In this document: one piece after another, positions 24,033 to 46,458 of the stretch
Position numbering within the stretch: position 1 is the first letter of the stretch
Layout of the letters: every line of letters begins with the position of its first letter
From: an uncultured Francisella sp.
GTDB lineage: Bacteria > Pseudomonadota > Gammaproteobacteria > Thiomicrospirales > Thiomicrospiraceae
DNA: 64,000 bases
Reading direction: 5' to 3'
NCBI GenBank assembly: GCA_964606405.1
Contig: CAZSGH010000002.1
Coordinates: 34,719-98,718 of the forward strand
Notes under the pieces: generated by a model
Told to the model about the DNA's origin: nothing
The model's input: only the letters and a program-made list of their open reading frames with translations
The model's database searches: none
Translations under genes and position numbers: made by a program

Positions 24033-27000
24033 ATGGAAATTATTACCTACTGGAACGGCGAGGAATTATCCTACGTATTAAATGCGATTTCCTCGCTGAT
24101 GAATAGCTTGGATTTTGCATCACTGCTAAAGACTATTTCTTATACAGCGGTGATGGTTGCTTTTATGATGGGCGTAACAGGCCTCATGAAGCAAGAAGAT
24201 TGGCCAAAGTATGTTGCCGTGATGGTTGTCTTCATCTATGTCATGACCGGACCTCGATCGACAGTCACCATTACCGATCAATCTGTCTCTATGCCTGCAA
24301 CCGTTGTTGGTGGTGTACCAATGCCATTAGCATGGATCGGCAGTACGACTTCTGGTATTGGTGCTTGGCTAACCACAGCTGTTGAGACAGTGTTTCAGGT
24401 GTTACCGCCGCTTACGAGCGGCAATGTGCCCTACCCACCTGAACTCAGTTTTACGGGTGGCGGTGGTCCATTATTCGGTCATCGCATTATTCAAGAAAGC
24501 GGGATGTTATCCATCAACTCGCCTGTTTTGTCTCAAGACATGATGTCTTTCTACCGTGAATGTGTCATTCCCGACATCAATACGGGTTACCTTAACGTCA
24601 ATGACCTGAATACAACCAGTAATATATGGTCAATGCTCAACGATACCAACCCAGCACGTTATGTCACCATCCACTATTATGACTCTGGGACAGGAAAGTG
24701 GGCATGGGATGCCAGTGCCATTAACTGTCAGCAAGCTTATGCTCGCCTAACAGGTTATTTAAACAGCGAAGCAACGACTACCTTACATCAACTTGGTCGT
24801 CGCATGAATTACAAGTCAAACCAAGCGGCAGCTGAATCAATGATTGTTGGTCAACTGCAATCAGGTTATGGCGCAATGTTGGGCATATCCGCCAATGCAG
24901 TGGACATTGTGAAACAGAAGATGATGACTAACTTCATTCGTGAAGCGTCATACAAGATACCCGCAATGTCAGGTGATCCTGCTTCAACTCAAATTGGTCT
25001 CGCACAAGCACAGGCTGAAGCACAGTATGCTTCATCATCGCTAACCATGCGCAAAGTAGCCGAAGGTCTACTACCTAAGGTCAGAAACATCATTGAAGCT
25101 CTGATATACGCCCTATTTCCGATATTGGTTATCTATGTCATTATGGCTGGTCACAACGCTCTAAAGCCATTAGCGATGTACTTAAAATTAGCGGTGTGGA
25201 TCCAGTTATGGCCGATGCTATACGCCATCATGAACTTCTTCACCACCTTTGGCATGGCGAAACAGTGGCAAGCTGAAACGCTCGGCAATGGACTGGCCAT
25301 GCAGTATTCTGCACTCATTCATGCTGGTGCTGCATCGGATATGTCGGTAGCAGGCATGATGATTTCTATGATTCCCGCCATTGCATGGATGCTGGCAAGT
25401 GGTTCCGTCTATGCCGCGACCCAAGTCGCCACAGGCATGATGCAACCCGCTAACTCAGCAGCCAGTAGCGCAGGCTCACAAGCTGCTTTAGGCAATATTG
25501 GTATGGGGAATACCAACCTAAACAGTGCCAGTACCGACAAATACGACATGTCTCCTAATATCAGCACTGGTACGATGAGTATGAGAGGAGGAAATGGCTC
25601 TGAACATAACTTCACATCATCTGGCGGACTTGGTGGCGGTGGTGATGTTGCTCGAAACGATGGCTTTAGAATGAATAACCTATCAGCTAACGCATCGCAG
25701 GAATGGGCGGCAGTACAAACAGCACAAAAAACGTTAACCAATGCAGAAGCAGCATTGAAAACCTCTCAAGAGTCTTATCAAAGCGCTATTGGTTCTAATT
25801 CTGGCACAAGTTATGACTTTGCGAGTAATGCCAGTAACATGCAATCCTTCACCAAGGGTATGGGAAAAGATGAAAGTAATGAGTTTGCTAAGGGCGCACA
25901 GTCCTATCAATCATCTGCGGATTCCATTGCTAAGTCTTTGGGTATTGATAGTGCACAAGCCAAGCAATTGATGGCCAGTACTGGTTTTGGTTGGAATGGC
26001 GGCTGGCTGCCTGGATTAGAAGCTAAAGTTAACGGCAGTGCTCAGTACTCGCAAGCTCAAAAAGATGCATTTAATCAAGCCACGACAGGCGAAAATGGTA
26101 AAAAGCTTGATGAAGCATCGCGCTGGGCTGAGAAAGTCAATCAAAATAGCGGTTGGAGTGATGTTGCTCAACATGGCAATACTGCGTCTAAAAAGATTGC
26201 TTCTGGTGTGATGGAAACCAGAGCCAGAGCATCGGCTGTCACTGCTGCTAAATCTAATGTGTTAACAGCACAACAAGCCTTGAGTGACGCGGAATCATCA
26301 GCTGTTAAGGCATCTTTTAACGATAACATCGGCAGGAATGCAGGCAATGCAAAATTACAGGGATTTTTGGAAGAAGGACAAAAAATAGCTCAACGCAAAG
26401 GCATGACAGATCCAGGCGACATTGCATACTTTGCACGTCAATACGCTGGTCAAAAAACGAGAGACTGGGTGAAGAGTATGGGCGGTAGTGACGATTTAGC
26501 AAAAAGAATTATCGCAGCCAACGAGAATCCTGGCGTGACAATTGAGCAAAGGCATAAAAAAAATGTGGGCAGCGTAGATGCTGCTGGTGACCCAACTGCT
26601 TTAGCGAACAACGCGAAAGGATTATACGAAGGTGAAATGGGTACGGCTCAAGCTAAGGTGAATGCTGGAATGCAAAAACTGGATAAAGACGTAAACGGCA
26701 TGAAACAGCGCGTCGATTCCTTCCGAGCATCCACGGGAAAAGATATGGATGCTAAACAAACCGAAGCCTTAAAAGCAGCTGAAGCAGCTGGCTTAATTAC
26801 CTTTGATGACAAATCGGGTAAATACACGATCAATGACCCCGACATGGGCAAGAACATTGATAAAGCCGCTACAGAGGTATCCGACCTTACGGGTGGTAAG
26901 GTTACACCCGAGCAGGTTAAAGATGTTGTTGGTACCTTGGCAGCAGCTCGTACGGGTGCTGTTCTGGGTAAGTCAGCTGGAACAGTTGTAGGTGGTACTG

Positions 27001-29234
27001 TGGCAAGGACTGTCGATATGCAAGTGCTTACTGGTGCAGCAGGCGGCATCGCGGGATTCGGAGCTGGTGGTGCAGCACTTGGAGGAGCTGGAGGCGGTAA
27101 TCATAATGGTTCTGGTACAACCACAGCATTGCCTGACGGTAGAACATTCGGTTGGAATGGTGATGTTCCCGTTGTCATACCCGCGCAGACTGGTAGTACA
27201 GGACAGAATAAAGACAATCCAACAGTGACTACTGACCCAAAAAATATACCAGATGGTTATTCTGACGCTGGAGGCCTAACTTTATCTGATGCAGGGAACA
27301 ATAAGCCACTCGTTACAAATAACACCAGACTAGCGCCTGTCGATGGAAAGAGAATTGACTCAATGACAAATGCACTAACGTCAATGCTTGGTGGCACACC
27401 AACTACTGGCAACGGTAAACCTAAAGTTACGAAATCACGTACAGTCAAGCCTGCTGCACCAGCACAGCCGACATCGATCGGCACCTCCGATGCGAGCCGT
27501 TCGGATGTCAGTACAGCGAATACAGGCGCGACGACTATTGCTAATGGCACAGCGCAAGCCGCTCAGCCATTAGAAACATCACAGGTGCATGCTGATGTCC
27601 CTGCTGCAGCTCAATCTTCGACTCAGCAGCTAATAACAGGTGGACAGTCGTCAACCACTGCTGCGCCTGAATCTAAGGTCGATGCTAAATCAACACCTGC
27701 GGCAGATGCGGCTCAACTGAGCACAGGCACGGCTAACGCCCAGCCTGCTCAATCAAGCCAAGCAATGACAACAGCTGGTGATAATACCAACCGTCCTGAT
27801 GTGAGTCACAACCAGGGCGCTCACCAAGGTGGACGCTCACCCGTGGGTGAGTCAGGTACTGGCAGTGCTGGTCAAGCGAGTGTCACACCAGGTCAGCAAG
27901 CAACGCAACCTGCTAAAGCATTTGATGACGTACCTGCTGCACCAGCACAGCCGACATCAATCGGCACCGCTAATGCGAACCGTTCTGATGTCAGTACCGC
28001 GAATACAGGCACAAGTCATCAAGCGAGTGTGACGACGATTGATAATGGCACAGCGCAAGCCGCTCAGCCATTAGCAACGTCACCGGTGCATGCTGATGTC
28101 CCTGCTGCAGCTCAACTGAGCACAGGCACAGCTAACATCCAGCCTGCTCAATCGAGCCAATCAATGACAACAGCTGGTGACAACACCAACCGTCGTGATG
28201 TCAGTACAGCCAATACAGGAGCAAGGACTCAAGCCAGTGCTGCGACGGTTGAAAACGGCACCGCGCAAGCCCCTCAGCCATTAACAACGTCACAGGTGTA
28301 TTCTGATGTGCCTGCAGCAGCTACAGCTCAATCATCCACTCAAAATCTAATAGGTGGTAAATCGTCGGCCACTGCTGCGCCTGAATCTAAGGTCGATGCT
28401 AAATCAACACCTGCTGTTGATGCGGTTCAACCGAGCACAGGCACGGCTAACGCCCAGCCTGCTCAATCAAGCCAAGCAATGACAACGGCTGGTGACAACA
28501 CCAACCGTCCTGATATCAATCACAACCAGAGTGCTCACCAAAGTGATCGCGCACCCGTTAGTGAGTTAGCTTCTGGCAGTACTACTCAACCGAACGTTAA
28601 CCCAAGCAAGCAAGCAGCACAAGTATTTAATGATGTACCTACTGCACCAGCACAACCGGCATTGAGCGGCACCACTGATGAGAACCGTTCGGATGTCAGT
28701 ACCGCGAATGCGGGCACAAGTCCTCAAGCGAATGTGACGACAGTTGATCATGGCACAGCGCAAGCAGCTCAGCCATTAACAACCTCACAGGTGCATACTG
28801 ATGTCCCAGCAACACCTCAATCATCGATTCATAATCTAACAGGTGGACAGTCATCATCCACTGCTGCACATGAGTCTAAAGTAGACGCTAAAGCAACATC
28901 GACTACGCCTACGGCAGATTCAGCTCTATTGAGCACTGGCACGGCTAACGCCCAGCCTGCTCAATCAAGCCAAGCAATGACAACGGCTGGTGACAACACC
29001 AACCGTCCTGATATCAATCACAACCAAGGTGCTGGTGATCGAGGCGCTCAGACAGAAGTGAGAACAGTAGAAACGCAGACACAAGTTAATACTATCGAGA
29101 CGCAGCACCATACCAATACGATTACACAAAAGGTTAGCGGATCCGCACAATCACAGCCTGCACCAAAGGTTGGCAGCAACCAAACCAAAAATGCTAATGC
29201 TGCTAATAAAGGAGATAAACCTGATGTTAGTTAA
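24033..29234 (+). CDS. traG: TraG-like mating-pair stabilisation protein with a giant repetitive C-terminal extension
   Basis: 1733 aa. The first ~480 aa form a TraG_N-like multi-TM region (MEIITYWNGEELSYVLNAIS...). The remainder is low-complexity Ser/Thr/Ala/Gln-rich with long tandem repeats. Confidence 0.85.
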   Translation: MEIITYWNGEELSYVLNAISSLMNSLDFASLLKTISYTAVMVAFMMGVTGLMKQEDWPKYVAVMVVFIYVMTGPRSTVTITDQSVSMPATVVGGVPMPLAWIGSTTSGIGAWLTTAVETVFQVLPPLTSGNVPYPPELSFTGGGGPLFGHRIIQESGMLSINSPVLSQDMMSFYRECVIPDINTGYLNVNDLNTTSNIWSMLNDTNPARYVTIHYYDSGTGKWAWDASAINCQQAYARLTGYLNSEATTTLHQLGRRMNYKSNQAAAESMIVGQLQSGYGAMLGISANAVDIVKQKMMTNFIREASYKIPAMSGDPASTQIGLAQAQAEAQYASSSLTMRKVAEGLLPKVRNIIEALIYALFPILVIYVIMAGHNALKPLAMYLKLAVWIQLWPMLYAIMNFFTTFGMAKQWQAETLGNGLAMQYSALIHAGAASDMSVAGMMISMIPAIAWMLASGSVYAATQVATGMMQPANSAASSAGSQAALGNIGMGNTNLNSASTDKYDMSPNISTGTMSMRGGNGSEHNFTSSGGLGGGGDVARNDGFRMNNLSANASQEWAAVQTAQKTLTNAEAALKTSQESYQSAIGSNSGTSYDFASNASNMQSFTKGMGKDESNEFAKGAQSYQSSADSIAKSLGIDSAQAKQLMASTGFGWNGGWLPGLEAKVNGSAQYSQAQKDAFNQATTGENGKKLDEASRWAEKVNQNSGWSDVAQHGNTASKKIASGVMETRARASAVTAAKSNVLTAQQALSDAESSAVKASFNDNIGRNAGNAKLQGFLEEGQKIAQRKGMTDPGDIAYFARQYAGQKTRDWVKSMGGSDDLAKRIIAANENPGVTIEQRHKKNVGSVDAAGDPTALANNAKGLYEGEMGTAQAKVNAGMQKLDKDVNGMKQRVDSFRASTGKDMDAKQTEALKAAEAAGLITFDDKSGKYTINDPDMGKNIDKAATEVSDLTGGKVTPEQVKDVVGTLAAARTGAVLGKSAGTVVGGTVARTVDMQVLTGAAGGIAGFGAGGAALGGAGGGNHNGSGTTTALPDGRTFGWNGDVPVVIPAQTGSTGQNKDNPTVTTDPKNIPDGYSDAGGLTLSDAGNNKPLVTNNTRLAPVDGKRIDSMTNALTSMLGGTPTTGNGKPKVTKSRTVKPAAPAQPTSIGTSDASRSDVSTANTGATTIANGTAQAAQPLETSQVHADVPAAAQSSTQQLITGGQSSTTAAPESKVDAKSTPAADAAQLSTGTANAQPAQSSQAMTTAGDNTNRPDVSHNQGAHQGGRSPVGESGTGSAGQASVTPGQQATQPAKAFDDVPAAPAQPTSIGTANANRSDVSTANTGTSHQASVTTIDNGTAQAAQPLATSPVHADVPAAAQLSTGTANIQPAQSSQSMTTAGDNTNRRDVSTANTGARTQASAATVENGTAQAPQPLTTSQVYSDVPAAATAQSSTQNLIGGKSSATAAPESKVDAKSTPAVDAVQPSTGTANAQPAQSSQAMTTAGDNTNRPDINHNQSAHQSDRAPVSELASGSTTQPNVNPSKQAAQVFNDVPTAPAQPALSGTTDENRSDVSTANAGTSPQANVTTVDHGTAQAAQPLTTSQVHTDVPATPQSSIHNLTGGQSSSTAAHESKVDAKATSTTPTADSALLSTGTANAQPAQSSQAMTTAGDNTNRPDINHNQGAGDRGAQTEVRTVETQTQVNTIETQHHTNTITQKVSGSAQSQPAPKVGSNQTKNANAANKGDKPDVS
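27450..29030 (+). repeat. In-frame composite tandem repeats inside traG
   Basis: Module APAQP(T/A)(S/L)(I/S)GT..(N/S)RSDVSTAN(T/A)G occurs at about 27456, 27939 and 28646. Module STGTANAQPAQSSQAMTTAGDNTNRPD occurs at about 27712, 28110, 28430 and 28925. Confidence 0.9.
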
Positions 29235-30420: not shown

Positions 30421-30627
30421 GATACACCGCCTAAGTTTTGCGTTTCGTTATGAGCATTATTGCGCTGTGAAGTGGTGGTGTCAAGTGGTTTTGTGAAAAT
30501 AATTTGATTTATTTTATTAAATATCAACAGGTTATATTGTTACAACTATAGGATCGTAACGCCGAATACAGTCACAGTTGAGACAACCTTAAATAGTATT
30601 TTTTTGGGACAAATTAGGAGATTAGTG

Positions 30628-31239
30628 ATGAAAGATTTGGGGCAAAATGTGCTTTTTAACATAGCCAAAATAGTTCAACAAATGAAGAAAGAATTAGTGG
30701 CGAACAACGAAGATGTTTATCTTGTCATCGGCTCCGATGGCGACTTGTTTTCTGTCGAAATTTGCTCAGGTGAATTTGACAGCAGAAAAATCATTAAACT
30801 GATACACATCAATATCAAACCAAAAGCAGAACAGCCTTATGAGCTAAAAGACATCATACAACTTGCCACAGCTTCGGAATGGAACGCATTCATAAAACTT
30901 CTCTCAATTGCAGTTCAAGCGTCAAAGGTTGAGATTTGCCACCCAATAGATGGTAATGGTGAATTCTTAACTGATTGGGATTCTGCTGTTGAGATGGTGT
31001 CAACGGATAACGAAAAATTGAATAGTCTGTGTGAAGACAACATCATAATGTCTGACCATATAACCGAACATCACCCTGTACCTTGGAAACTAGAAAAGGG
31101 TAGCGAAAATTATAGGTCAGTAATATTAGATCAAAACAATGCTATTGTATTGATTGGATTTAATGGCTCTGCATCCAATGAGGTCAGCGATGACGTTCTA
31201 CAGGAAATCGTCGCTTGTGTAAACAAGTTTAATATGTAA
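30628..31239 (+). CDS. Hypothetical protein
   Basis: Start at MKDLGQNVLF preceded by AGGAG. 203 aa with no recognised family. Confidence 0.45.
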   Translation: MKDLGQNVLFNIAKIVQQMKKELVANNEDVYLVIGSDGDLFSVEICSGEFDSRKIIKLIHINIKPKAEQPYELKDIIQLATASEWNAFIKLLSIAVQASKVEICHPIDGNGEFLTDWDSAVEMVSTDNEKLNSLCEDNIIMSDHITEHHPVPWKLEKGSENYRSVILDQNNAIVLIGFNGSASNEVSDDVLQEIVACVNKFNM

Positions 31240-31268
31240 TGACCAGTCAACTGATATGTAGCAGAAAA

Positions 31269-32036
31269 CTAGTTAAATTGATTTGGAAAACTAGCCATCA
31301 TTTTTTCAACCTGAAATTTATTTGGTTGTAAAAATTGGTTTTCAAACAACCAGTTTAGATCAGGCTTTATATTTTCGTGCTCTAATAAGTCTGACTCGGA
31401 TGGCTTTGCTTTAGATGAGCATGGTGCTTGAAACGTAAGTTTTAGAATACTCCAATCTTCATTTACTCTAATCCAAATATCTTCAAGTGTTCTTACTCGG
31501 TTACTATAATAAAACCTAATCCATGTGCTTCTAACTGACCTAGCCTTAATATTTGTGGGTGGTGGAAACTCACAAGTAGTCAAAAATATGTAAGGCAGAT
31601 GCCATTCAAGTAGCCCACGATACGCCCAGATATTTTTGTTATTTAACTCTCTAATCCAAGCTATAAACAAAAATATGTCAGTCATAGGGGCAAATTTTTG
31701 TATTAGCCCCCAGTGTCGCTCCCAATTATTGAAAAAGGAAAGTTTAACCAGATTAGCATTTGCAAGATCAGGGTCATTTGGCTTTAACATCTCATATTTC
31801 GTTTTACCAAAATCTTTCAGTACACAAAATTCATTATCATGAGGATGTGACCAAGTAGGATCTCTTTTAACTGAGTTTCTATCAACAGGAGACATCTTTG
31901 CACCACATGCTGGACATAAGATATCGTGTAATACCCGATTTACTTTTTGATATTGATTAATATATTGTCCATATTGTTGATCAAAATCACTAACTGTAAT
32001 TAGCTTATTAAGTATTGGATCAAAAGCTTTCTTCAT
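31269..32036 (-). CDS. Unknown Trp-rich protein with CPAC...HPH..C cluster, last gene of the RT operon
   Basis: 255 aa. Its ATG is 6 nt after the nucleotidase stop. No family recognised. Confidence 0.6.
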   Translation of the reverse strand: MKKAFDPILNKLITVSDFDQQYGQYINQYQKVNRVLHDILCPACGAKMSPVDRNSVKRDPTWSHPHDNEFCVLKDFGKTKYEMLKPNDPDLANANLVKLSFFNNWERHWGLIQKFAPMTDIFLFIAWIRELNNKNIWAYRGLLEWHLPYIFLTTCEFPPPTNIKARSVRSTWIRFYYSNRVRTLEDIWIRVNEDWSILKLTFQAPCSSKAKPSESDLLEHENIKPDLNWLFENQFLQPNKFQVEKMMASFPNQFN

Positions 32037-32042
32037 TAAGTT

Positions 32043-32975
32043 TTACTTCACAATATTCGCAATTCCAAATGGAATATGGACTAATGATATGTTCCCTGAA
32101 TCCGTTTCAAGATGACCCTTTTGATCATCAAAAAATAGATGAGGTTTTAATATCTCCAAAATCCTAGACTTTTTCATTCCACCTAAAAAGAATGATTCAT
32201 CAGGGGTTACGCCCCATTTACTCAAGGTAGTCACTACCCTTTCATGAGCTGGAGCATTTCTTGCAGTGATAATTGCAATTCGAAGAATTTTTTTATAATT
32301 TTGATCATTTAAAGCCAGCTTATCTTCAAGACTTTGCATAAACGATAGCTTCTTAAATAAATCTGCTAATGGACCAGGATTGTGAGGAATTGATTTTTTT
32401 AAAGCCTCGTGCTCCTGAAACTCCAATAAGTCATTGTTTTCTTTGTACACTGACTCTGCCTCATCATCAGCGATTACCCCATCAAAGTCGAATGCAACTC
32501 GCAACTCTTGGTCACTCTCATCGTCTACAACGTTAGATGGCAAAACAACCCCAGCTGGATAGCCTAACTTAATAGCTTCTAAAACATCATTTTCGTTGGC
32601 ACTCAAAAAAATGGAAATATTAAATGCTGGAATATATTCATGAGGTGACTTTCCTGCCATAAAAGCTGCCCGAGAAATATTCAATCCATAGTGGCTAATT
32701 GACCTAAACACCCGCATACCAGTTTCAGGAGAGTTCTTCGATAGGAGAACAACTTCAACTGGCATTTCACTATTAAAAACTCTATTAATATTTAGAAACC
32801 TTTTTATGAAAGGAAAGGCCACACCTTTGTTAAAAGGGATATCAATATTTTTCATTTGATAATTACGATAAGCATCTACACCAGATGTTTGATAAACATC
32901 ATTAGATTCAGACAAATCAAATAAAGCACTTGACGCTACGCCGATAACTAGTTTTCTCTCAATAGGATATGGCAT
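32043..32975 (-). CDS. Stand-alone bacterial 5'-nucleotidase family protein (HAD-like)
   Basis: 310 aa. VASSALFDL..S..VY...GV.AYR.YQ, VEVVLLSKNSPETG, AFDFDGVIADDE (DxD), ITARNAPAHERV and FFDDQ match my recollection of the Pfam 5'-nucleotidase family along the whole length. Confidence 0.75.
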   Translation of the reverse strand: MPYPIERKLVIGVASSALFDLSESNDVYQTSGVDAYRNYQMKNIDIPFNKGVAFPFIKRFLNINRVFNSEMPVEVVLLSKNSPETGMRVFRSISHYGLNISRAAFMAGKSPHEYIPAFNISIFLSANENDVLEAIKLGYPAGVVLPSNVVDDESDQELRVAFDFDGVIADDEAESVYKENNDLLEFQEHEALKKSIPHNPGPLADLFKKLSFMQSLEDKLALNDQNYKKILRIAIITARNAPAHERVVTTLSKWGVTPDESFFLGGMKKSRILEILKPHLFFDDQKGHLETDSGNISLVHIPFGIANIVK

Positions 32976-32978
32976 AAT

Positions 32979-33926
32979 CTACTGTTCCTTGTTTTTATTA
33001 TTTATTTGTTTAACGATGTTCTGTTGCCCTCTCAGGCTTCCTGTCAATGATGCTATTTCGATTAAATCTGTTGAGTCATCAATCTGTTGTTTAGTAATTC
33101 TGATTTTCTTCTGTAACTTATTACTTGCTAACATTCCGCGATCTGATAGACGCACGCCAGTAACTATTTTGGGCTGTGTGCTCGCATATGTTATTGATTT
33201 TGAGTTTTTGGTTTTAAGTCCATTGTTTCTAAGTAACTGACGAACCTCTGAGAGCATTTTCTTAGTTGCCTTTTCTCCTGAAATAGTGATGTCATCAACA
33301 TAAAGCGTAAACACGCATTCGTGTGTTTGAGCCAGCGAGTTAACTTGATCAAACACATCAACATAAGTCCAAAATGCTAAGCGATCGCTAAGGAAGCTAC
33401 CTGTTGGTAATACCTGTTTAAGAGCACCTAAATCATCCCCTAATGGTACAGTGCATAAATCAGCTAACAAAGAAGCTATATCATTACCACATTGGAATTT
33501 TTTAGCGAATAGGTTAAAGATCATCTCCCTTGATACGCTAGGAAAAAAACACTTTATATCAGTTTTTATTAGTGGATTTAATGAGATATGTTCCGCTGCA
33601 TTGTCTATAAAAGATCGACCTTTTTTAGAAAAAACATAATCTGGCTGCTTGATCTTTGCCAAGTAGTTTGCTATTTTTCTATGGATAGTTTCTAAATCAT
33701 ATATGGGTTTTTGGTATTTTCTATCTTTATCAGCAATTGTCACAATACCATGGTAATAATAAGATTCGATATTTTCTGACAGGCTTTTACAGGAGTACCA
33801 ATCCAGTCCGATGATAGACTCAAACTGTGCTTTCCCTTTTATCTTAAAGAGTGGCGATTGATGTAAAGGATAAGGAGTTTTAAGCAGCTTTTGGTGCAAT
33901 ACTGTCATAGTCTGCCAACCACTCAA
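32979..33926 (-). CDS. Retron-type reverse transcriptase
   Basis: 315 aa. RT blocks are LIKTDIKCFFPSV, LPTGSFLS, FTLYVDDITISG and GLKTKNSKS. Retron hallmarks NAxxH (DNAAEH) and VTG (KIVTGVRL) are present, and the size is typical for a retron RT. Confidence 0.82.
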   Translation of the reverse strand: MSGWQTMTVLHQKLLKTPYPLHQSPLFKIKGKAQFESIIGLDWYSCKSLSENIESYYYHGIVTIADKDRKYQKPIYDLETIHRKIANYLAKIKQPDYVFSKKGRSFIDNAAEHISLNPLIKTDIKCFFPSVSREMIFNLFAKKFQCGNDIASLLADLCTVPLGDDLGALKQVLPTGSFLSDRLAFWTYVDVFDQVNSLAQTHECVFTLYVDDITISGEKATKKMLSEVRQLLRNNGLKTKNSKSITYASTQPKIVTGVRLSDRGMLASNKLQKKIRITKQQIDDSTDLIEIASLTGSLRGQQNIVKQINNKNKEQ

Positions 33927-34206
33927 GAATTTTTAAAACTTTGTCTGCTGCAGAGATTCTGATCTTATTCTTGGCAATGTTCTTATTACCATCAATGCTT
34001 TCTGAAAACAATAAAATTGTTGATACAGGCATATTAAAAATATTGGAGTATTTATTTAGCAAGTCAATACTAGGAGACTTAACACCTTTCTCAATCTCGC
34101 TTAAATACGAGTTAGATATCTCAAGTCGTCCAGCCAACTCAACTTGTGTGAGCTGATGGTAAGTTCGAAGAAGCTTTAGTGCTCTATTAATCATTGAATT
34201 TTCCAT
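33880..34206 (-). CDS. XRE-family HTH regulator
   Basis: 108 aa with LTQVELAGRLEISNSYLSEIEKGVKSPSIDLL. Its 3' end overlaps the RT start. Confidence 0.8.
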   Translation of the reverse strand: MENSMINRALKLLRTYHQLTQVELAGRLEISNSYLSEIEKGVKSPSIDLLNKYSNIFNMPVSTILLFSESIDGNKNIAKNKIRISAADKVLKILEWLADYDSIAPKAA

Positions 34207-34242
34207 TGTTGAGACAAAGGGATACTGCTATTTTTCATTCGT

Positions 34243-34368
34243 CTATAAAAACCAGTAACAAAACTGGCTAAACAACCAATAAACAAGCTTGATTACAGCA
34301 GACTTCACAAGAAATCTTTTGATACGCTTAACAACAGTTCCCTGCTCTTTGGAAGATTTTTGGTCCAT
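34243..34368 (-). CDS. Possible 41-aa small membrane protein
   Basis: AAGGAG lies 6 nt before the ATG. Sequence MDQKSSKEQGTVVKRIKRFLVKSAVIKLVYWLFSQFCYWFL has a basic N-terminus and a hydrophobic C-terminus. Confidence 0.35.
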   Translation of the reverse strand: MDQKSSKEQGTVVKRIKRFLVKSAVIKLVYWLFSQFCYWFL

Positions 34369-34399
34369 GATGGACTCCTTTATTGCACTGCAAAATCGC

Positions 34400-34605
34400 A
34401 GCCGTCGTACGCAATAAGTCCAAAGCAATGAGCAGGTTGACCCCCTTTATTACAATGCATCACTCAGCCACGTCGTGCTGAGTGATGCTTTTTTCGGCGC
34501 ACCACGTATGACTCAGTGACGAGGTGTGCAGAAGTATCAGAGCTTACGCTCCACAAAGTCAAAAAGACTTCCAATTACCGACGGTTATCTTTTTTCAATC
34601 TTCTG
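34400..34605 (-). ncRNA. Candidate retron msr-msd ncRNA (structured 5' leader of the RT operon)
   Basis: Lies between the predicted promoter (34612..34640) and the first RBS. Contains hairpins AAGTC/GACTT, GAGC-GUAA-GCUC and a 12-bp stem (34457..34488). Terminal complementarity CCGTCG (34579..34584) / CGACGG (34402..34407) could be a1/a2. Confidence 0.3.
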
Positions 34606-34611
34606 CGTCAG

Positions 34612-34640
34612 ATTCTAGCATCAACTTCCTTAATTTGCAA
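34612..34640 (-). promoter_or_regulatory. Sigma70-like promoter of the RT operon with overlapping palindromic operator
   Basis: On the minus strand: TTGCAA, 17 nt, TAGAAT. Palindrome ATTTGC-N10-GCAAAT (34633..34654) overlaps the -35 hexamer. Confidence 0.5.
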
Positions 34641-34679
34641 ACTTTTTCGCAAATAGCGAATAAAATACTCAAAACCATC

Positions 34680-34708
34680 TTGAAAATTAACGAAGACCGC
34701 ACTATATT
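34680..34708 (+). promoter_or_regulatory. Sigma70-like promoter for the 34772 gene
   Basis: TTGAAA, 17 nt, TATATT, located 64 nt upstream of the ATG. Confidence 0.5.
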
Positions 34709-34771
34709 GGTAGCTGTAAGGGCAATCCTATCTTTTGCTTTTTTATCAACAACTCAAAAGGTTAATTTAAC

Positions 34772-35014
34772 ATGAATACAAAACAAACGTCTGAAGGCTT
34801 AGCACAACTGGCCGCACGCACACTTAATGACGACAACTCATCCAAGATCGCTAAACGATTAGCTGGATCTGCATTATCACAAACGCACACAGGCAACCAA
34901 ACAAGTGCTGAGATGGAAGGCTTAGCGTCATCAGTTCTTAGAAGTACAAAGTACAGTGACGATACTAAATCTTTAGCTGGTTCGATCCTTTCTCAGTCAA
35001 ACAAACAGAGATAG
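34772..35014 (+). CDS. Small hydrophilic protein with repeated LAGS.LSQ motif
   Basis: 80 aa with three copies of (K/R)(R/S)LAGS(A/I)LSQ-like segments. No family recognised. Confidence 0.45.
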   Translation: MNTKQTSEGLAQLAARTLNDDNSSKIAKRLAGSALSQTHTGNQTSAEMEGLASSVLRSTKYSDDTKSLAGSILSQSNKQR

Positions 35015-35434: not shown

Positions 35435-36841
35435 CTATTCCCCAAGCAGTTTACCAAAATCAATATTGATGACACTATAATCATTATCTGCAACTTCTAA
35501 AAAAGTGCTCTCTCTAAAGTAATAATATGAATCATTTAATTTTTTTATAACTTCATCAAATTCTAATAATTTAATTGGTTCATTTTTTACAAAAAAATCA
35601 TGAATGCGATTCATCGAGATAATTGATGATGCAAGACAAGTAAAAGCCAAAGCAAGCAAATTGTTCCCACTTCCTTCTTCAAGGTCTTTGATGAAGGCAT
35701 AGCTATTCGTAAGATCACAATCACACGCCCTTATCTCAACATTTAACCTATTAGTAATAATTTCAAGACGTTGACTAATAAATTTACGAAAAAGTAATAC
35801 TTCATCATATTTATTGTCCTGTATTAAACTCATCATTGTTATGAGTTCAGCAAACCAACAATTAGAGTTATTCACCAAGGATAGAAATAGTTCTTTTGCG
35901 ATCTTATTATTAAATGAAATAAGGTAATCAAACCTATTTTCAGTATACTCATCAATAAGATAAGTTTTATATATTGATGTTAATTCAAAATGAAATAGTC
36001 TATAAAGTCCATTAAGAAACTCTTCCAATGTTTGCGATTCAACCTCAATAAAAGAACGAACAAATCCATCTGGTAATAAACCAGAGAATTCTTTCATTTC
36101 TTCTAACAAACAATTTAGCTTCATCACGCCTGTAGCTACTTTATCAGCTGTCTTGAAGTTAGATTGGGAGTGATAGAATGACGTTAATTGCAGTTTTAAG
36201 TAAAATTTCGCATTAATTTCATTAATTTCATTAATATTTATAGTTGAATGCTTTATGGTTACATCCTGCCAGCTCTTATCTTTTTTCAATTCGTCATAGA
36301 TATCTACAGGGAGTACTCCTGTAATTGAACGACTCTTCCTAAGCTTAACATCAGAAAAAACGCGCGCTATAAGCTCACTACAATGAAAACTTAGTCTAGC
36401 GTCTCTTCTTTTACGTAGTTTTACTTTAAAATCAATTAAAAAGTTGTATGGTAGACCAAAATAATATAGTGCTTTACTAGAAATTTCATTTTGAAGATTT
36501 ACATTACCAGTAACCTTCTTGTTCCTCAATACTAAAAAACGTTCAACACCTTTATCGATAAAACCAGAAGATGATAAGCTGTCAATTGTTACACCTGACT
36601 TCAAAACATATTCAGGTAGCGAAAGCTCACGAGATACCATCTTCATCAACTCTCCTTTACTAGGTATTGAATGAAGCACAAGTCCCGAAGATATGACTAG
36701 ACCTACATGAGTAAACTCTTCCTGATAGCTTTTCGATCTTACTTTTTGATACAAAAGATTTATTTTAGCTAGCTTACCAGCGGACTTGATGAATAATACG
36801 TCACCAGGTTGTGGTACAAATTGTCCAACGTTTTTATCCAT
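35435..36841 (-). CDS. Permuted papain-fold (YiiX/NlpC-P60-like) peptidase domain fused to a ~270-aa helical domain
   Basis: Start at MDKNVGQF, where the ATG shares one base with the upstream TGA (TGATG). The order PGDVLF ... THVGLV (His) ... FHCSELIARVF (Cys) is as in permuted papain-like amidases. Confidence 0.6.
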   Translation of the reverse strand: MDKNVGQFVPQPGDVLFIKSAGKLAKINLLYQKVRSKSYQEEFTHVGLVISSGLVLHSIPSKGELMKMVSRELSLPEYVLKSGVTIDSLSSSGFIDKGVERFLVLRNKKVTGNVNLQNEISSKALYYFGLPYNFLIDFKVKLRKRRDARLSFHCSELIARVFSDVKLRKSRSITGVLPVDIYDELKKDKSWQDVTIKHSTININEINEINAKFYLKLQLTSFYHSQSNFKTADKVATGVMKLNCLLEEMKEFSGLLPDGFVRSFIEVESQTLEEFLNGLYRLFHFELTSIYKTYLIDEYTENRFDYLISFNNKIAKELFLSLVNNSNCWFAELITMMSLIQDNKYDEVLLFRKFISQRLEIITNRLNVEIRACDCDLTNSYAFIKDLEEGSGNNLLALAFTCLASSIISMNRIHDFFVKNEPIKLLEFDEVIKKLNDSYYYFRESTFLEVADNDYSVINIDFGKLLGE

Positions 36842-37317
36842 CACCCCACCCTCTCCAGCAGTGCATGGCAATGGGGTGACTGGGCGACAACGTCGGCGAT
36901 TTGATTGGCGAGTTCTTGATGCAAGTATTGCGAGCTTAGGTTGACCCAAACGAGTGCTAGACCAGCACTGGTGAAGGCTTCACTAAGAAAATTGTCACGT
37001 TTAATTCTGTCTTCGCGCTCATGAGATTTGTCGTTTAGTTCGACCGCGCACAGAAAGTTGAGTTGTTTATCAGTGATAACGAAATCGACATGCTTTTGAC
37101 TGACTTGAGAAAATAACCAATGCCAACCACTGCCCTTTTCGAACTGATTAACACTAGGCATAAGAATGTCGGAAACCCGAACTTTTCCGAACACACGGAA
37201 GGCATCGCCAGATATGGCATCGAGGGCATCTAAGAATTTTTGCTCCGCTTTGGTAAACAAAGCGCCTCTAGGCTTATAGAGGATGGGTGTAGTCATAATT
37301 AACTCGCTTTTCATCAT
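36841..37317 (-). CDS. DUF2726-like (restriction-endonuclease-fold) protein
   Basis: 158 aa. FTKAEQKFLDAL, RVFGKVRVSDIL, HVDFVI and AVELNDKSH fit the DUF2726 signature (D...E.x.K-like core). Confidence 0.62.
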   Translation of the reverse strand: MMKSELIMTTPILYKPRGALFTKAEQKFLDALDAISGDAFRVFGKVRVSDILMPSVNQFEKGSGWHWLFSQVSQKHVDFVITDKQLNFLCAVELNDKSHEREDRIKRDNFLSEAFTSAGLALVWVNLSSQYLHQELANQIADVVAQSPHCHALLERVG

Positions 37318-37358
37318 CGAAGTCAGCGGTTAATATACGCCTGAGCATTTAGTTTGTC

Positions 37359-37386
37359 AAAGGGGAAGAACATTCCCCTTTTTTAA
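37359..37386 (+). terminator. Hairpin plus T6; the stronger U-tract is on the plus strand
   Basis: AAAGGGGAA-gaaca-TTCCCCTTT followed by TTTT on the plus strand. The minus strand has only TTT. Confidence 0.45.
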
Positions 37387-37387
37387 G

Positions 37388-37927
37388 TTAATCGTCAATC
37401 TGTACACTCTCAAACCCACAACTGACCTTCTTAGTCTTGAGAAACTGATTGACCTCATGCAAGGTTAGCATGTCTCTATTGTGCAAAAGCTCAATACTTT
37501 CACGAAAGGTGGCGAGTTGTTGATAGTGCTTCTTCGCAAAAGCTACAATGCCATCCTCATAACTTGGCGCACTAGTTAGAAGAATACTAATATTTCGTGT
37601 TTGTTGAAACAGATCATCGCTTAACCACAATGAATGAGAAGATATTTCATTGATAATCGTGTGTGCATCTAGTAAACCATTCTTGTGTGAAAGCAGGATA
37701 TGGTACGGTAGTCTGTCATCGTCAATGACTGCTGTTTTTAAACTAGTAATCAGTTGTTGTATTGACTCGTATGCAGCGATTCGCTTTGCGATAACTAACT
37801 TGTAATAATCATGTTCATACCCACGATCTTTTACTCTGAGATTAAATCGCCCCGCTATGACTGCACCAATTGTGCCACCAATCACAGAGCTAGAAAGTAT
37901 TGCGATAACAAGTTGCTCAGTGGACAT
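37388..37927 (-). CDS. Hypothetical protein with N-terminal TM helix
   Basis: 179 aa. No family recognised. Confidence 0.45.
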   Translation of the reverse strand: MSTEQLVIAILSSSVIGGTIGAVIAGRFNLRVKDRGYEHDYYKLVIAKRIAAYESIQQLITSLKTAVIDDDRLPYHILLSHKNGLLDAHTIINEISSHSLWLSDDLFQQTRNISILLTSAPSYEDGIVAFAKKHYQQLATFRESIELLHNRDMLTLHEVNQFLKTKKVSCGFESVQIDD

Positions 37928-38732: not shown

Positions 38733-38937
38733 GGTGTCGACCGCATAGCGGCGGAACCATGCTCAATCATTATTGTTTGCTACAATCAGTATTGATGGGG
38801 CATGGTTTGGGTAGTGGTGAAAGCAGGGCAGTAATCATATTCGGCTACTGCTGTTCCAACCCTAACTCGAATCGGCAATGCCCAGCTGAACTGGTCAAGT
38901 CGCACAGCCTCCCTCGCCCTCATCCGCAGTCTGTCCG
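38733..38937 (-). repeat. Conserved non-coding element, copy 1 (core only)
   Basis: About 90% identical to 40784..41078 apart from a 90-nt indel. Substitutions are spread evenly over all codon positions in every frame. Confidence 0.85.
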
Positions 38938-38960
38938 CCTTGCACGTATTGTTAGGGTAT

Positions 38961-40554: not shown

Positions 40555-40577
40555 TGGAATGGATACCCACAACCCTG

Positions 40578-41100
40578 ATTATACGGCAAGCCTGCCGTAT
40601 AACACCCACTAACAGTTTTCATCATAATCAAAACCTCTCCTACCACTTCATTTTAATGTGCTGCATGACATATATCAGCACCTACTTTGGCAAGATAATA
40701 GCACAACAATTAATAACTGTGTACAGTCTTAGTTAAGCATTAATAGCGCAAATGAATCCATATTAAACGGCATTATGCCCATTGGTGTCGACCGCATAGC
40801 GGCGGCGCCATGCTCAATTATTATTAGTTGCTGCAGTCAGTATTGATAGGGCATGGTTTGGGGTTATCACCCTCGACGATTTTCTGTTCGCGGGTACTAA
40901 ACCAGCTCAAAATCGGTTTAGCAGGTAGGCTAATTTTGTGCGGTGACTTGGGTAGTTGTGAAAGCAGGGTAGGCATCATATTCGGCTACTGCTGCTCCAA
41001 CCCTAACTCGAATCGGCGATGCCCAGCTGAACTGGTCAAGTCGCACTGCTCCCCTCGCCTTCATCCGCAGTCTGTCCGACTGCTTTCGTGTCGGGATTGG
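40578..41100 (-). repeat. Conserved non-coding element, copy 2 (full length, 523 nt)
   Basis: Fills the 5' part of the DUF1643 cassette. Ends in a perfect 10-bp hairpin TTATACGGCA-ggct-TGCCGTATAA. Contains a -10-like TTAAAAT box and a short leader ORF. Confidence 0.85.
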
Positions 41101-43389: not shown

Positions 43390-43446
43390 GCCCAACGTAA
43401 AATTAGCCGGCTCCGCGCTTTTGCGGAGTCCAGGTTGAATTTGGGT
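43390..43446 (-). other. attC-like site
   Basis: Minus strand: ACCCAAA..CTGG-A-CTCCGC-aaaa-GCGGAGCCGG..GTTGGGC, with an extrahelical A. Confidence 0.7.
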
Positions 43447-44627
43447 CAGACCTCATCGGGATATTTGAACTGTAGCAAGAAATCATAAATGCTCTCGACC
43501 GTATACCTGATATCTTCGTCACAGCTCAATCCGTCTGGAAAAGTGTAATAGATCATTCGTTTTTCCTGCGGAACAATCTTGGGATAGGGTACGCAACCCT
43601 CCTCGAGTCCAGCAAGCATATCGTCGGGGATGGGCACAATGGTTACTCTCCACTCGTCTCCGAATTCATGTTTAATGCGTTTTGCTAAACGGGTTCTGAC
43701 GGCCTCCCAGCCCGGAATGTATTTAAGCGTAAGATCCAAGGCTACAACGACAGTTTGGTGTTGAGGTTCTGCGCCTGAATTCGGTGCAGTTGGTTTTGCA
43801 GTATTGTTGAGTGCTAAAGCCGCCACTCGCTCCCTCAGTGCCCTACAGATTTGCGTGTAGCCGTCGGGCGTGAATTCGTCAACCCAGTGCCGCTGAGAAA
43901 GACGGTCTGGAACGTCACAGACCTCCAACCGAATTGGAACGACAAATATCACGCCCTCAGGCTGCTCATCGGCGACGTCCAATGCAATTCGGATTTCCTT
44001 CTGTACGAAGCCAGATTTAATAGTTGAACGCGTGGAAAGGCAGACCAACACGACATCGGCAATTTTAACGGCGCGTCTGATTTCCAGTTGCCAGTCTTGA
44101 CCAGCAATTAGATCCTCTTCATCGAGCCATGGCGAGAAGCCATCTCGCTTGAGCTTGTGATACAGCTCGCGAACTTGTGGCTTGTCTTCAGAAGCGTGGC
44201 ACAAGAAAACTCGAAGTGGGCGATTGATAGGTGCCACTATCAATGGGGTACTCGCGGAATTGATCACCGGAGTCGCTAGTCCGTTCGCGGTGTGCATGAC
44301 GTGGTCGGAGAATTGAGGACCGAAACGTTTGATGATCTTCGAACGAAGCTGCTTCACCTCATCTGGCGTCGAAATTCCAAAACGATCACACAGATCTAAC
44401 AGGAACTCGTACTGATCCTTCGGCGAGAAAACCGCGAGATTCTGTTGAAGTGCTGTTCTTTTGTTTGGAGCGTCAAACGGATAAGTGCTGTGTGGAGGAT
44501 CAACATTGCAATCTACTGCCCGTGCGTTGCAGTACTCGACAATTTTAGAACCCGAGAGTCCACGTGAGGTATCCGCCAGAATCTCTGCTGCGTGGTTCAA
44601 AAAGGATGCGGGTATTCTGTCGGACAT
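43446..44627 (-). CDS. TIR-domain protein with unknown N- and C-terminal domains
   Basis: Start at MSDRIP with an AAGGAAG RBS. TIR core is RVFLCHASEDKPQVRELYHKLKRDGFSPWLDEEDLIAGQDW...VVLVCLS...FVQKEIRIAL, including the conserved Glu. Confidence 0.78.
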   Translation of the reverse strand: MSDRIPASFLNHAAEILADTSRGLSGSKIVEYCNARAVDCNVDPPHSTYPFDAPNKRTALQQNLAVFSPKDQYEFLLDLCDRFGISTPDEVKQLRSKIIKRFGPQFSDHVMHTANGLATPVINSASTPLIVAPINRPLRVFLCHASEDKPQVRELYHKLKRDGFSPWLDEEDLIAGQDWQLEIRRAVKIADVVLVCLSTRSTIKSGFVQKEIRIALDVADEQPEGVIFVVPIRLEVCDVPDRLSQRHWVDEFTPDGYTQICRALRERVAALALNNTAKPTAPNSGAEPQHQTVVVALDLTLKYIPGWEAVRTRLAKRIKHEFGDEWRVTIVPIPDDMLAGLEEGCVPYPKIVPQEKRMIYYTFPDGLSCDEDIRYTVESIYDFLLQFKYPDEV

Positions 44628-44641
44628 GCAGGTGCTTCCTT

Positions 44642-44689
44642 GGCTAACGTTCAAGCTAAGGGGCGGAGCGCTTTTGCGCCTGATTAGCT
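44642..44689 (-). other. attC-like site between the cyclase-like and TIR ORFs
   Basis: Minus strand: AGCTAAT-ca-GGCGC-aaaa-GCGC-T-CC..TTAGCT..GTTAGCC, with an extrahelical T. Confidence 0.55.
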
Positions 44690-45559
44690 TTTCTTTGTAT
44701 CGATGTTGCATAGGCAATCTTGATTCCGAGTGAAATTATTAGCTATCTCGTTGTGGTAGTTGGCAAGCCATTTGTATTTGGCTTTTACATCATCATCATT
44801 AGCACCAGTATAAGCACGTTTGATGTTTTCTGAATGTGTTTTTAGCCATTCATCGATATTCTGGCGATACCCTTCGTCCATGATTTTGTTTTTATCTTTC
44901 GGCGAAGAAAGGCGATATTCATCGGACCGCTCTTTTGATCTCTGCCATCCAACCCCTTCCAAGCATATGGTCATATAGTCAATGTAGAAATGCTTTTTAC
45001 CATTTATTTCCAGACATCTAAAAACTCTAGGTATTGGATCAAAATCATCGCTGTAGTACTCGCGATGGGAATGCTTTGAAAAATAATCATAAACTCGATC
45101 AGTGAGTGCGATAACTGGAACTGATACAGCAACTTCCGATTTATATGCGTTAACCATACTCTGGCTAATTAATGTGGCGTCCTTCTGATACCACCACCCA
45201 AGATCAAGGCCACCACGGATAAAGAGTGAATTGAGACAACAGACTCCTTGACCATAAGCAAAACTCGTAATCTCAGACATTATTGAGTCAAAAGTGCCTT
45301 CGAATTTCGTAGCTTCGGATTCGAGCGGTATATTAACCACCACACAATCTGAGAATGCCAAAACAGTTGTCTTGTGCATTTCTTGCACTTCGCGAGTTAA
45401 ATCATCGTCGGTTTCGAAATCAAAAGCGTCCTGAATGAGTTTTACGCCTTTATGTATTTCTTTGATGTCGTCTATGCTCTTCGCAGCAAGTACCTTGTTG
45501 CCAAAACCTAATATATCGATGAAGGCAGTGACTCCGACGGAAATATCTTTTTCGTCCAT
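44684..45559 (-). CDS. Nucleotidyl-cyclase-like (class III cyclase / palm-fold) protein
   Basis: 291 aa. VTAFIDILGFGNKV resembles F.DI.GFT, VLAFSDCVVV resembles the second metal Asp strand, and IRGGLDLG...ISQSMVNAYKSE resembles RIGIH.G...G..VN.A.R.E. No search was run. Confidence 0.5.
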   Translation of the reverse strand: MDEKDISVGVTAFIDILGFGNKVLAAKSIDDIKEIHKGVKLIQDAFDFETDDDLTREVQEMHKTTVLAFSDCVVVNIPLESEATKFEGTFDSIMSEITSFAYGQGVCCLNSLFIRGGLDLGWWYQKDATLISQSMVNAYKSEVAVSVPVIALTDRVYDYFSKHSHREYYSDDFDPIPRVFRCLEINGKKHFYIDYMTICLEGVGWQRSKERSDEYRLSSPKDKNKIMDEGYRQNIDEWLKTHSENIKRAYTGANDDDVKAKYKWLANYHNEIANNFTRNQDCLCNIDTKKS

Positions 45560-45580
45560 ATGGTATCGGTTGCTCTTGAA

Positions 45581-45646
45581 AACTAACGTTTGAGTTCAGC
45601 CGCCTGAACGCTTTTTGCAAAGGTCGGCTGCAACGATGGGTTGGGC
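45581..45646 (-). other. attC-like site
   Basis: Minus strand: GCCCAAC..TT-G-CAGCCG-A-CC..GGCGGCTGAA..GTTAGTT, with two extrahelical bases. Confidence 0.75.
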
Positions 45647-46453
45647 CTAGGCATTGATTAAACCAAACCCAGTATTGAAGTAAGGATGAATGGAAACGTC
45701 CATATGATTGAGCCAGTCTGCATACGAGGACAGATCGTTCAATAGCTGCACAAAAGGGAATCCTCGCAAGTCTTCTTCCAATGGCATTAGGTAGAAGGTG
45801 TCTTTCGGAATTACGCAACCGGTCGACGCGCGTGTTTCACTTCGAAAGAACCTAATCATGTATTTCCGGTTAACGACTATTCCTTTCGGATAGCGGCGGT
45901 ACGGAATATTAGGATGGTTACTATAAAAGGCATTTACATGAGCAAGGCACGTTTCGCCGCTGATACCTTCGTAAGCGAATACGTATAGCGACGGATGGCG
46001 TTCAAGAAACGCTTCGCTTGATCCGGTCTTAAGAATTTTGAAGCCAAATGCTTCCATGCTTGGCTCAGGAATGCTGGATAAATTAGTAAGCGCATCAATC
46101 AAGGAGGCCTGATTTAAGGTCGTTTTGACTGTAATTGCACCCGCAACGCTTTCTGTTGTGACAAAGGTCTTTTCATTTTCGTCAAACCTCACACCAAGGT
46201 CATTTGAAACAATCACATCGATCTGTCCGGATTCACTGCCGTTGTGAGAAATGACCTGTCCGCCAAGAGAGGCATAGAGTCGCCTTGGGAGATGGCGAAG
46301 CAAGAAATCTCTAACAATATCTTCCCGATTTGACCCAATGTCTGGTCGGTGTTGTGCGGTGCTTGCGATAAGCGAAGCACTTGCGATCTTGTCTGCGACT
46401 CCGTTGAAGTAGTTTTGAATTCTTGTCACCGCAAACTCCCTGTGTAGGCCCAA
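45647..46453 (-). CDS. PD-(D/E)xK-like nuclease-fold protein (DUF6602-like by recollection)
   Basis: GSNREDIVRDFLLRHLPRR, SGQIDVIVSND and TESVAGAITVKT give a D...E.K arrangement. The true start may be GTG at 46429. Confidence 0.55.
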   Translation of the reverse strand: MGLHREFAVTRIQNYFNGVADKIASASLIASTAQHRPDIGSNREDIVRDFLLRHLPRRLYASLGGQVISHNGSESGQIDVIVSNDLGVRFDENEKTFVTTESVAGAITVKTTLNQASLIDALTNLSSIPEPSMEAFGFKILKTGSSEAFLERHPSLYVFAYEGISGETCLAHVNAFYSNHPNIPYRRYPKGIVVNRKYMIRFFRSETRASTGCVIPKDTFYLMPLEEDLRGFPFVQLLNDLSSYADWLNHMDVSIHPYFNTGFGLINA

Positions 46454-46458
46454 CCATA

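Follow-up and report, generated by a model that had tools for sequence, protein, structure and literature searches.

Type VI retrons are a named class of retrons that was reportedly defined by Mestre et al. in 2020. Their operons are ordered as non-coding RNA (ncRNA), small protein (SP), helix-turn-helix (HTH) protein and reverse transcriptase (RT), and the toxin is the SP, which is encoded within a structured 'hybrid RNA' (bioRxiv 10.1101/2025.10.22.683967; 10.64898/2026.04.27.721009). The HTH protein neutralises or represses the SP in Retron-Vpa2 (bioRxiv 10.1101/2025.10.22.683967) and in Retron-Sen3 (bioRxiv 10.64898/2026.04.27.721009), and the phage cues in the studied systems are recombination proteins or RecBCD inhibition (bioRxiv 10.1101/2025.10.22.683967; 10.64898/2026.04.27.721009). 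Published Type VI retrons may produce multicopy single-stranded DNA (msDNA) only upon infection (bioRxiv 10.1101/2025.10.22.683967). Here we analysed a 64,000-nucleotide stretch of contig CAZSGH010000002.1 from an uncultured Francisella sp. (the window), in which genes for an HTH protein and an RT are followed by genes for a 5'-nucleotidase and for a protein of 255 amino acids (aa). A preliminary description had proposed a new retron subtype with the nucleotidase as effector. Judged from its sequence, the locus is instead a divergent, complete member of the known Type VI retrons and not a new retron type or class, and it probably combines a complete Type VI retron (module 1) with a separately evolving passenger made of the nucleotidase and the 255-aa gene (module 2), both behind one promoter.

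Assignment of the RT and the HTH protein to Type VI retrons

Among the PADLOC hidden Markov models (HMMs), the RT matched RT_VI at 2.4e-75 over 277 of the 279 profile positions, and the next model, RT_III-A, scored 4.3e-35; the Pfam domain RVT_1 was matched at 1.7e-12. The HTH protein matched HTH_VI of PADLOC at 4e-34 and HTH_3 of Pfam at 9.8e-11. It is of the Cro/C1 type, and its gene lies upstream of the RT gene and overlaps it, as in Type VI retrons. The window RT carries the retron motifs NAxxH, YVDD and VTG, whose residues do not vary among 24 RT homologues (N109, A110, H113, V210, D211, D212, T256 and G257), so the earlier recognition of a retron RT holds. The HMM placement among RT clades, which had been suggested as a check, also gave the Type VI retron model as the best. 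An origin among the DRT/UG, Abi or group II RTs was rejected because of much weaker scores (Drt3a, 2.1e-8; group II, 8.4e-7). In NCBIfam, retron and RT models were matched below threshold only, and there was nothing for the nucleotidase, the 255-aa protein or the SP.

As a Type VI comparison set, 80 genome loci were fetched with an RT alignment. The window RT shares only 28-44% identity with the other Type VI RTs of this set, and its relatives include the RT of the Thiomonas delicata DSM 16361 genome (L027; locus numbers are those of our fetched loci), a species among the tested Type VI retrons (bioRxiv 10.64898/2026.04.27.721009). An HTH homologue was detected by tblastn in 67 loci, directly 5' of the RT where the arrangement was examined. 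By the PADLOC HMM scores, the RT and the HTH protein are thus assigned to the named Type VI retron class.

A candidate toxin gene, a structured ncRNA and a promoter-like site

The preliminary description was incomplete, in that a fifth gene (the 41-aa SP open reading frame, ORF), a structured ncRNA and a promoter-like site lay unrecognised inside the interval that it covered (Table 1). The 41-aa SP is encoded between the ncRNA and the HTH gene, as in published Type VI retrons, behind a strong ribosome-binding site. It is basic at its N-terminus and hydrophobic at its C-terminus, and nearly every Type VI locus examined has an ORF of 41-57 aa with the same two properties immediately 5' of the HTH gene. 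An HMM built from 14 distant SPs ranked the window ORF first of 1358 six-frame segments, as a weak match (E = 0.012), and the SP is 80-100% conserved in L001, L007, L087 and L090. By analogy with Retron-Vpa2 and Retron-Sen3, it is a candidate Type VI retron toxin.

The 230 nucleotides (nt) upstream of the SP fold with z = -4.2. This region is nearly invariant across four close relatives, and it can also be aligned with 14 loci in which the RT shares only 34-44% identity with that of the window. The results from an 18-sequence alignment showed that 93.5% of cells were paired in the seven-helix structure versus 38-45% in slid controls, and that 27 of the 40 pairs had compensatory changes versus 4-15 in slid controls. 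One long-range helix, which resembles the a1/a2 pairing, joins CCGTCG (34584-34579) to CGACGG (34407-34402), with C-G changed to U-A in seven sequences, and helices 5 and 6 (34425-34410 with 34387-34375) sequester the ribosome-binding site of the SP. A 12-bp perfect hairpin within the ncRNA may serve as the template of reverse transcription and is a candidate msd stem; distant loci have a hairpin of other sequence at the same alignment position, for example GCCTGCCCGGG..CCCGGGCAGGC. No Rfam family was matched by 30.0-36.5 kb at E <= 1. With the covariation seen here, the architecture recently proposed for Type VI retrons reaches a further lineage.

The TTGCAA-N17-TAGAAT site upstream of the ncRNA is a putative promoter. 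Its -10 hexamer and the preceding TG are identical in L001, L007 and L087, and its -35 hexamer differs, reading TTTCAA in L007 and TTGCTA in L087. With promoter, ncRNA, SP, HTH protein and RT all present, the retron appears complete without the two downstream genes.

Distribution and divergence of the two downstream genes

In tblastn searches, the nucleotidase and the 255-aa gene were found in 0/79-80 Type VI RT loci within 6 kb, and homologues of the RT, the HTH protein, the SP and the 255-aa protein were found in 0/80 metagenomic nucleotidase loci (61-75% identity). The five-gene block was present only in relatives that had been fetched otherwise and whose RTs are at least 89% identical (L001, L087-L089, L090 and L091-L093). 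The co-occurrence of nucleotidase and RT in other genomes, another check proposed at the outset, was therefore not found outside one narrow lineage. No description of this gene combination was found in the literature on retrons plus nucleotidases, PDC-S08 or PF06189.

In about 45 of 78 other Type VI loci, the RT is followed by no ORF on the same strand. Where annotated ORFs do follow the RT directly, they encode a ShosT/PsyrT-like phosphoribosyltransferase (PRTase), PDC-S60, PDC-S06 or Vsr, all of them unrelated stand-alone defence candidates. The gene of this PRTase (196-198 aa; ShosT/PsyrT-like at 1e-9) overlaps the RT stop by 4 nt in four Type VI loci from different taxa (L019-L022; L019:3041-3637). 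PRTases are otherwise known as the effector class of Type III retrons.

A further comparison came from the close relative L007, which keeps the SP, HTH and RT genes at 80-90% identity and under purifying selection (dN/dS, the ratio of nonsynonymous to synonymous divergence, 0.10-0.20). There, the nucleotidase and the 255-aa gene are replaced by a HEPN-MNT pair, with the breakpoint of the cassette swap 31 nt inside the nucleotidase gene. At L007:5068-5863, where the retron is 90% identical, the gene after the RT consists of the first 11 nucleotidase codons (MAYPIERKMVI) fused to HEPN (NTase_sub_bind), and MNT follows. Since this retron is under purifying selection and has had the two genes replaced, it is evidently maintained without them.

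Synonymous divergence (dS) between the window and L090 was 0.05 for the RT, 0.16 for the HTH gene and 0.21 for the SP, versus 1.62 for the nucleotidase and 1.67 for the 255-aa gene. This contrast indicates that the two halves of the operon have different histories, and it points to a recombination break at the RT/nucleotidase junction.

The 5'-nucleotidase and its relation to Kongming-like clusters

The nucleotidase matches PF06189 over its full length (4.6e-124) and PDC-S08 of PADLOC at 2.8e-134, and the haloacid dehalogenase (HAD) residues D163, D165, T237, K269, D283 and D284 do not vary across 33 homologues. Human cytosolic 5'-nucleotidase IA (NT5C1A, cN-IA) belongs to the PF06189 family, which is part of the HAD superfamily (PMC5098729). 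These matches identify the protein as a bacterial homologue of human cN-IA and as a 5'-nucleotidase of the stand-alone HAD type, in agreement with the family proposed at the outset for its whole length, HAD motifs included. With more than 8000 clusters at 70-77% identity, this is a very large and highly conserved family, and dN/dS of the nucleotidase is 0.05-0.09. In 13 of 82 loci a family copy lies directly upstream of mfd, and these mfd-linked copies form a clade of their own in a neighbour-joining (NJ) tree. A sequence search against the PDB returned nothing for the nucleotidase, and experimental support for PDC-S08 was not found in the literature.

A 5'-nucleotidase has been reported as a recurrent KomBC-associated protein of Kongming systems when KomA is absent (bioRxiv 10.1101/2024.12.20.629578). 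Among our loci, L094, L095, L117, L123 and L150 contain KomB-KomC-nucleotidase clusters, in which a pair of Ham1-like and SIR2_2 genes adjoins the nucleotidase. This recurrent cluster of KomB-like Ham1, KomC-like SIR2 and PF06189 genes, found in either order, is a Kongming variant without the KomA deaminase. In L087-L089, KomB and KomC are followed by a small reverse gene, the ncRNA, SP, HTH and RT of the retron, and then by the nucleotidase and the 255-aa gene. From this gene order the retron cassette looks inserted between KomC and the nucleotidase, and the window nucleotidase may accordingly descend from a Kongming-like cluster. In the 64-kb window itself, tblastn with the KomB and KomC of L087 and L094 found nothing below E = 0.1.

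The 255-aa zinc-ribbon protein

The 255-aa protein has no significant Pfam match, in line with the preliminary view that it fits no recognised family. Five relatives were all that a word-indexed search found; with an exhaustive profile search the family grew to 338 clusters, almost all of them about 250 aa long. The zinc ligands C41, C44, H64 and C71 are the only invariant residues of this family. Of 66 aligned family members, 33 matched DUF7830 (PF25169) over residues 30-75 at E <= 0.01, the best of them at 3.1e-9, and a few matched CoiA_N (PF25164) over the same residues; the window protein itself matches neither model. Because of the CoiA_N-like N-terminus, a PD-(D/E)xK nuclease was considered, and it was rejected for now, as no acidic or lysine residues are conserved family-wide. 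The absence of conserved catalytic-type residues argues for a binding rather than an enzymatic role.

An AlphaFold2 model built from a 66-sequence alignment reached a pLDDT of 92.5 (52 from six sequences) and consists of an N-terminal zinc ribbon and a C-terminal alpha/beta domain. Foldseek searches of this model against the PDB and BFVD gave no match at E <= 0.001, and searching the PDB with a family profile yielded nothing above noise (E >= 0.29). Given a confident model without a Foldseek match, the C-terminal domain may be a fold undescribed in the PDB and BFVD. Family members also stand alone, after JetC/JetD of Wadjet (L002), in a type IV secretion system (T4SS) region of Leptospirillum (L003), and on Bacillus plasmids near recombinases and type I restriction-modification genes. 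No match to the 255-aa protein was found by tblastn in phage genomes.

Interpretation of the two modules

In the two-module reading that we consider probable, module 1 (34640-32979) would be a self-contained Type VI retron with promoter, ncRNA, SP, HTH protein and RT. By analogy with Retron-Vpa2 and Retron-Sen3, the HTH protein and the RNA structure would keep the SP silent or neutralised, and a phage cue, as in the studied Type VI systems, would unleash the SP and abort the infection. Module 2, the cN-IA-like nucleotidase (PDC-S08) and the 255-aa protein of the DUF7830 family, would be a passenger that landed directly behind the RT; if the nucleotidase still defends, it would most likely do so by hydrolysing the (deoxy)nucleoside monophosphates that phages salvage. 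The proposed new subtype with a nucleotidase effector is not supported, as the RT and the HTH protein are of Type VI and an SP ORF and an ncRNA are present; the HEPN-MNT swap in L007 and the prior listing of the nucleotidase as PDC-S08 also speak against it.

Several observations weigh against a mere passenger behind a complete retron. Only 3 nt, and no terminator-like site, separate the RT stop from the nucleotidase ATG; from this the genes are probably expressed together, and the nucleotidase is probably co-transcribed with the retron. Every known member of the window nucleotidase subclade is linked to a retron (window, L087 and L090 form one clade in the NJ tree), and as this clade spans a dS of about 1.6, the linkage could be old and only the retron part recently homogenised. 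No nucleotidase-255 pair free of a retron was found, and the sequence homology of the SP is weak. Through the tight spacing, the monophyly of the retron-linked nucleotidases and the lack of a retron-free pair, a lineage-specific functional link of the downstream genes to the retron keeps a small probability. Such a link is the substance of the view that this Type VI lineage recruited the nucleotidase and the 255-aa protein as accessory effectors or sensors, acting for example on nucleotides or msDNA metabolism beside the SP. The spacing of 3 and 6 nt, the preservation of the five-gene block in at least three diverged variants (window/L001, L087-L089 and L090) and the deep synonymous divergence of the retron-linked nucleotidases would agree with recruitment, as would the PRTase gene that overlaps the RT in L019-L022 and the fact that effectors of other retron types often act on nucleotides (NDT-like, PRTase). 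However, synteny is absent outside the lineage (0/79-80 and 0/80), L007 has kept its retron without both genes, and the retron already has an ncRNA and, in the SP, a candidate for its cognate toxin; moreover, the nucleotidase shares 70-77% identity with ordinary chromosomal copies, of which 13 lie beside mfd, unlike a fast-evolving conditional toxin, and dS differs 30-fold between the retron and the nucleotidase-255 module. We consider recruitment improbable. Slightly less probable still is a composite system, in which the Type VI cassette was inserted into the nucleotide arm of a Kongming-like system and stayed fused with it, the nucleotidase and the 255-aa protein being a second effector or sensor arm driven by the retron; if true, this would be a composite retron/nucleotide-pool defence not yet described.

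Other alternatives leave the retron aside. The nucleotidase and the 255-aa protein could be a two-gene defence system of their own, an extended PDC-S08 that borrows the retron promoter and is independent of both the retron and Kongming. The two genes co-diverge (dS 1.62 and 1.67 versus L090), stand adjacent in both alleles and are under purifying selection, PDC-S08 is a defence candidate, and the 255-aa family occurs on plasmids, integrative and conjugative elements (ICEs) and defence islands. Their pairing is nevertheless confined to this lineage, with a 255-aa homologue in 0/80 other nucleotidase loci, 255-aa family members elsewhere lack a nucleotidase, and no experimental support for PDC-S08 was found in the literature; this alternative is conceivable but rather unlikely. 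Doubtful to a somewhat greater degree is the idea that neither gene has a role in defence, the nucleotidase being a metabolic enzyme stranded from a broken Kongming-like cluster and the 255-aa gene an unrelated mobile-element gene. It would account for the absence of KomB and KomC anywhere in the 64-kb window, for the many housekeeping-like family members beside mfd and for a 255-aa protein without conserved catalytic-type residues beyond its zinc ligands, but neither gene is disrupted, purifying selection acts on both (dN/dS 0.05-0.34), and defence-type genes (TIR, DUF2726, DUF6602) abound in the region. The two-module reading remains the one that we prefer. The locus is a clear example of defence modules shuffled at gene boundaries, one relative having a retron between KomC and the nucleotidase and another a HEPN-MNT swap. 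It also draws attention to the 5'-nucleotidase that partners Kongming-like systems and to a mobile-element zinc-ribbon family of about 340 clusters without a known fold, both of them little studied.

Layout of the locus and its surroundings

The features of the locus are listed in Table 1. The preliminary description had given four tightly packed minus-strand genes, and the ORF listing reproduced its coordinates, its 47-nt HTH/RT overlap and its gaps of 3 nt (RT stop to nucleotidase ATG) and 6 nt (nucleotidase to 255-aa gene); likewise, each motif that it had named (YVDD, FIDNAAEHI, KIVTGVRL, AFDFDGV, ITARNAPAHERV, FFDDQ and CPAC..HPH..C) was found in the translations. The overlap of 47 nt applies to the TTG start of the RT. 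Gene callers start the RT six codons in, at the ATG at 33908, which gives a protein of 309 aa and an overlap of 29 nt.

Table 1. Coordinates of the features of the Type VI retron locus in the window and of the nucleotidase clusters in other loci
Feature	Position	Strand	Details and source
Promoter, sigma-70-like (putative)	34612-34640	-	TTGCAA (34640-34635), 17-nt spacer, TG-extended TAGAAT (34617-34612); pattern scan
Retron ncRNA, msr-msd-like part of the Type VI 'hybrid RNA'	~34375-34605	-	seven helices
12-bp perfect hairpin	34457-34488	-	GCATCACTCAGC-N8-GCTGAGTGATGC; candidate msd stem-loop
SP (small protein) ORF	34243-34368	-	41 aa, MDQKSSKEQGTVVKRIKRFLVKSAVIKLVYWLFSQFCYWFL; AAAGGAG 7 nt upstream of ATG
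HTH gene	33880-34206	-	108 aa; ORF listing
RT gene	32979-33926	-	315 aa from TTG; ORF listing
5'-nucleotidase gene	32043-32975	-	310 aa; ORF listing
255-aa gene	31269-32036	-	ORF listing
Co-inherited block	30601-34756	.	~91% DNA identity in L087 and L001 (blastn)
KomB-KomC-nucleotidase clusters	L094:643-2780; L117:1504-3851; L123:423-2852; L150:5001-7370; L087:2731-7153; L095		

The co-inherited block comprises the promoter-like site, the ncRNA, the SP, HTH, RT and nucleotidase genes, the 255-aa gene and a convergent gene for a 211-aa protein. This 211-aa ORF (30604-31239, plus strand) travels with the retron-nucleotidase block in L001, L087 and L091, and its product has no Pfam or PADLOC match. 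No match to 31.0-34.8 kb was found by Megablast among plasmids or E. coli genomes. On the other side, an 80-aa ORF (34772-35014, plus strand) diverges from the retron promoter and encodes internal AxxLAGSxLSQ-like repeats without a Pfam or PADLOC match; it is kept in L007 and L090, and a different 73-aa gene takes its place in L087. The 12-bp msd-like hairpin reads as terminator-like on the plus strand, about 285 nt upstream of the 80-aa ORF.

The block adjoins a gene for a 1733-aa TraG_N protein and lies among TIR, DUF2726, DUF6602, DUF1173 and DUF1643 genes. The TraG_N neighbour together with the defence-type genes fits ICE cargo or a defence island, and the ICE cargo near defence-like genes that had been proposed earlier agrees with the adjoining TraG_N conjugation gene and with the TIR, DUF2726 and DUF6602 genes nearby. 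The TraG_N protein (24033-29234, plus strand) has long C-terminal imperfect tandem repeats (..TANTG..AQPAQSSQAMTTAGDNTNRPD..), and the GC content of this repeat region, 0.52, is above that of its surroundings. Further cargo was found at 35435-37927, with a 504-aa protein of no assigned family and a DUF2726 protein (36841-37317), and at 43446-46453, with a TIR_2-domain protein (43446-44717, 2.7e-27) and a DUF6602 protein (45647-46453); both sets are typical defence-island content. The cargo region also contains three copies, 83-94% identical, of a composite intergenic element roughly 200-500 nt long (38733-38940, 40570-41081 and 46451-46713). In both L087 and L088 this element stands 5' of unrelated genes; it might act as a regulatory or promoter cassette that these have in common, or as a hotspot of recombination.

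Comparison with known systems

The KomB homologue of L087 has N9, K12, E15 and H65, like KomB of Kongming. Unlike Kongming and its KomBC variants, the window contains neither KomB (HAM1-like) nor KomC (SIR2), and unlike in the KomBC variants, a retron cassette separates KomC from the nucleotidase in L087-L089. The window nucleotidase resembles PDC-S08 and PF06189 in its full-length match and intact HAD motifs; in contrast to PDC-S08 as a single gene, it is close-packed behind an RT and followed by the co-diverging 255-aa gene. The N-terminal CxxC...H...C region of the 255-aa family members matches the DUF7830 and CoiA_N models; unlike CoiA, the 255-aa protein has no detected nuclease domain, and its C-terminal 175 residues are without a sequence or fold match.

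Unlike the published Type VI retrons, the window operon, known here from sequence alone, has two extra genes joined to its 3' end, and unlike many Type VI SPs, its SP is short (41 aa), is without an acidic tail and was matched to no published SP cluster. As in Retron-Vpa2 and Retron-Sen3, the order is ncRNA-SP-HTH-RT with the HTH gene overlapping the RT gene, the SP has a basic N-terminus and a hydrophobic C-terminus with its ribosome-binding site buried in the ncRNA, and an a1/a2-like inverted repeat is present.

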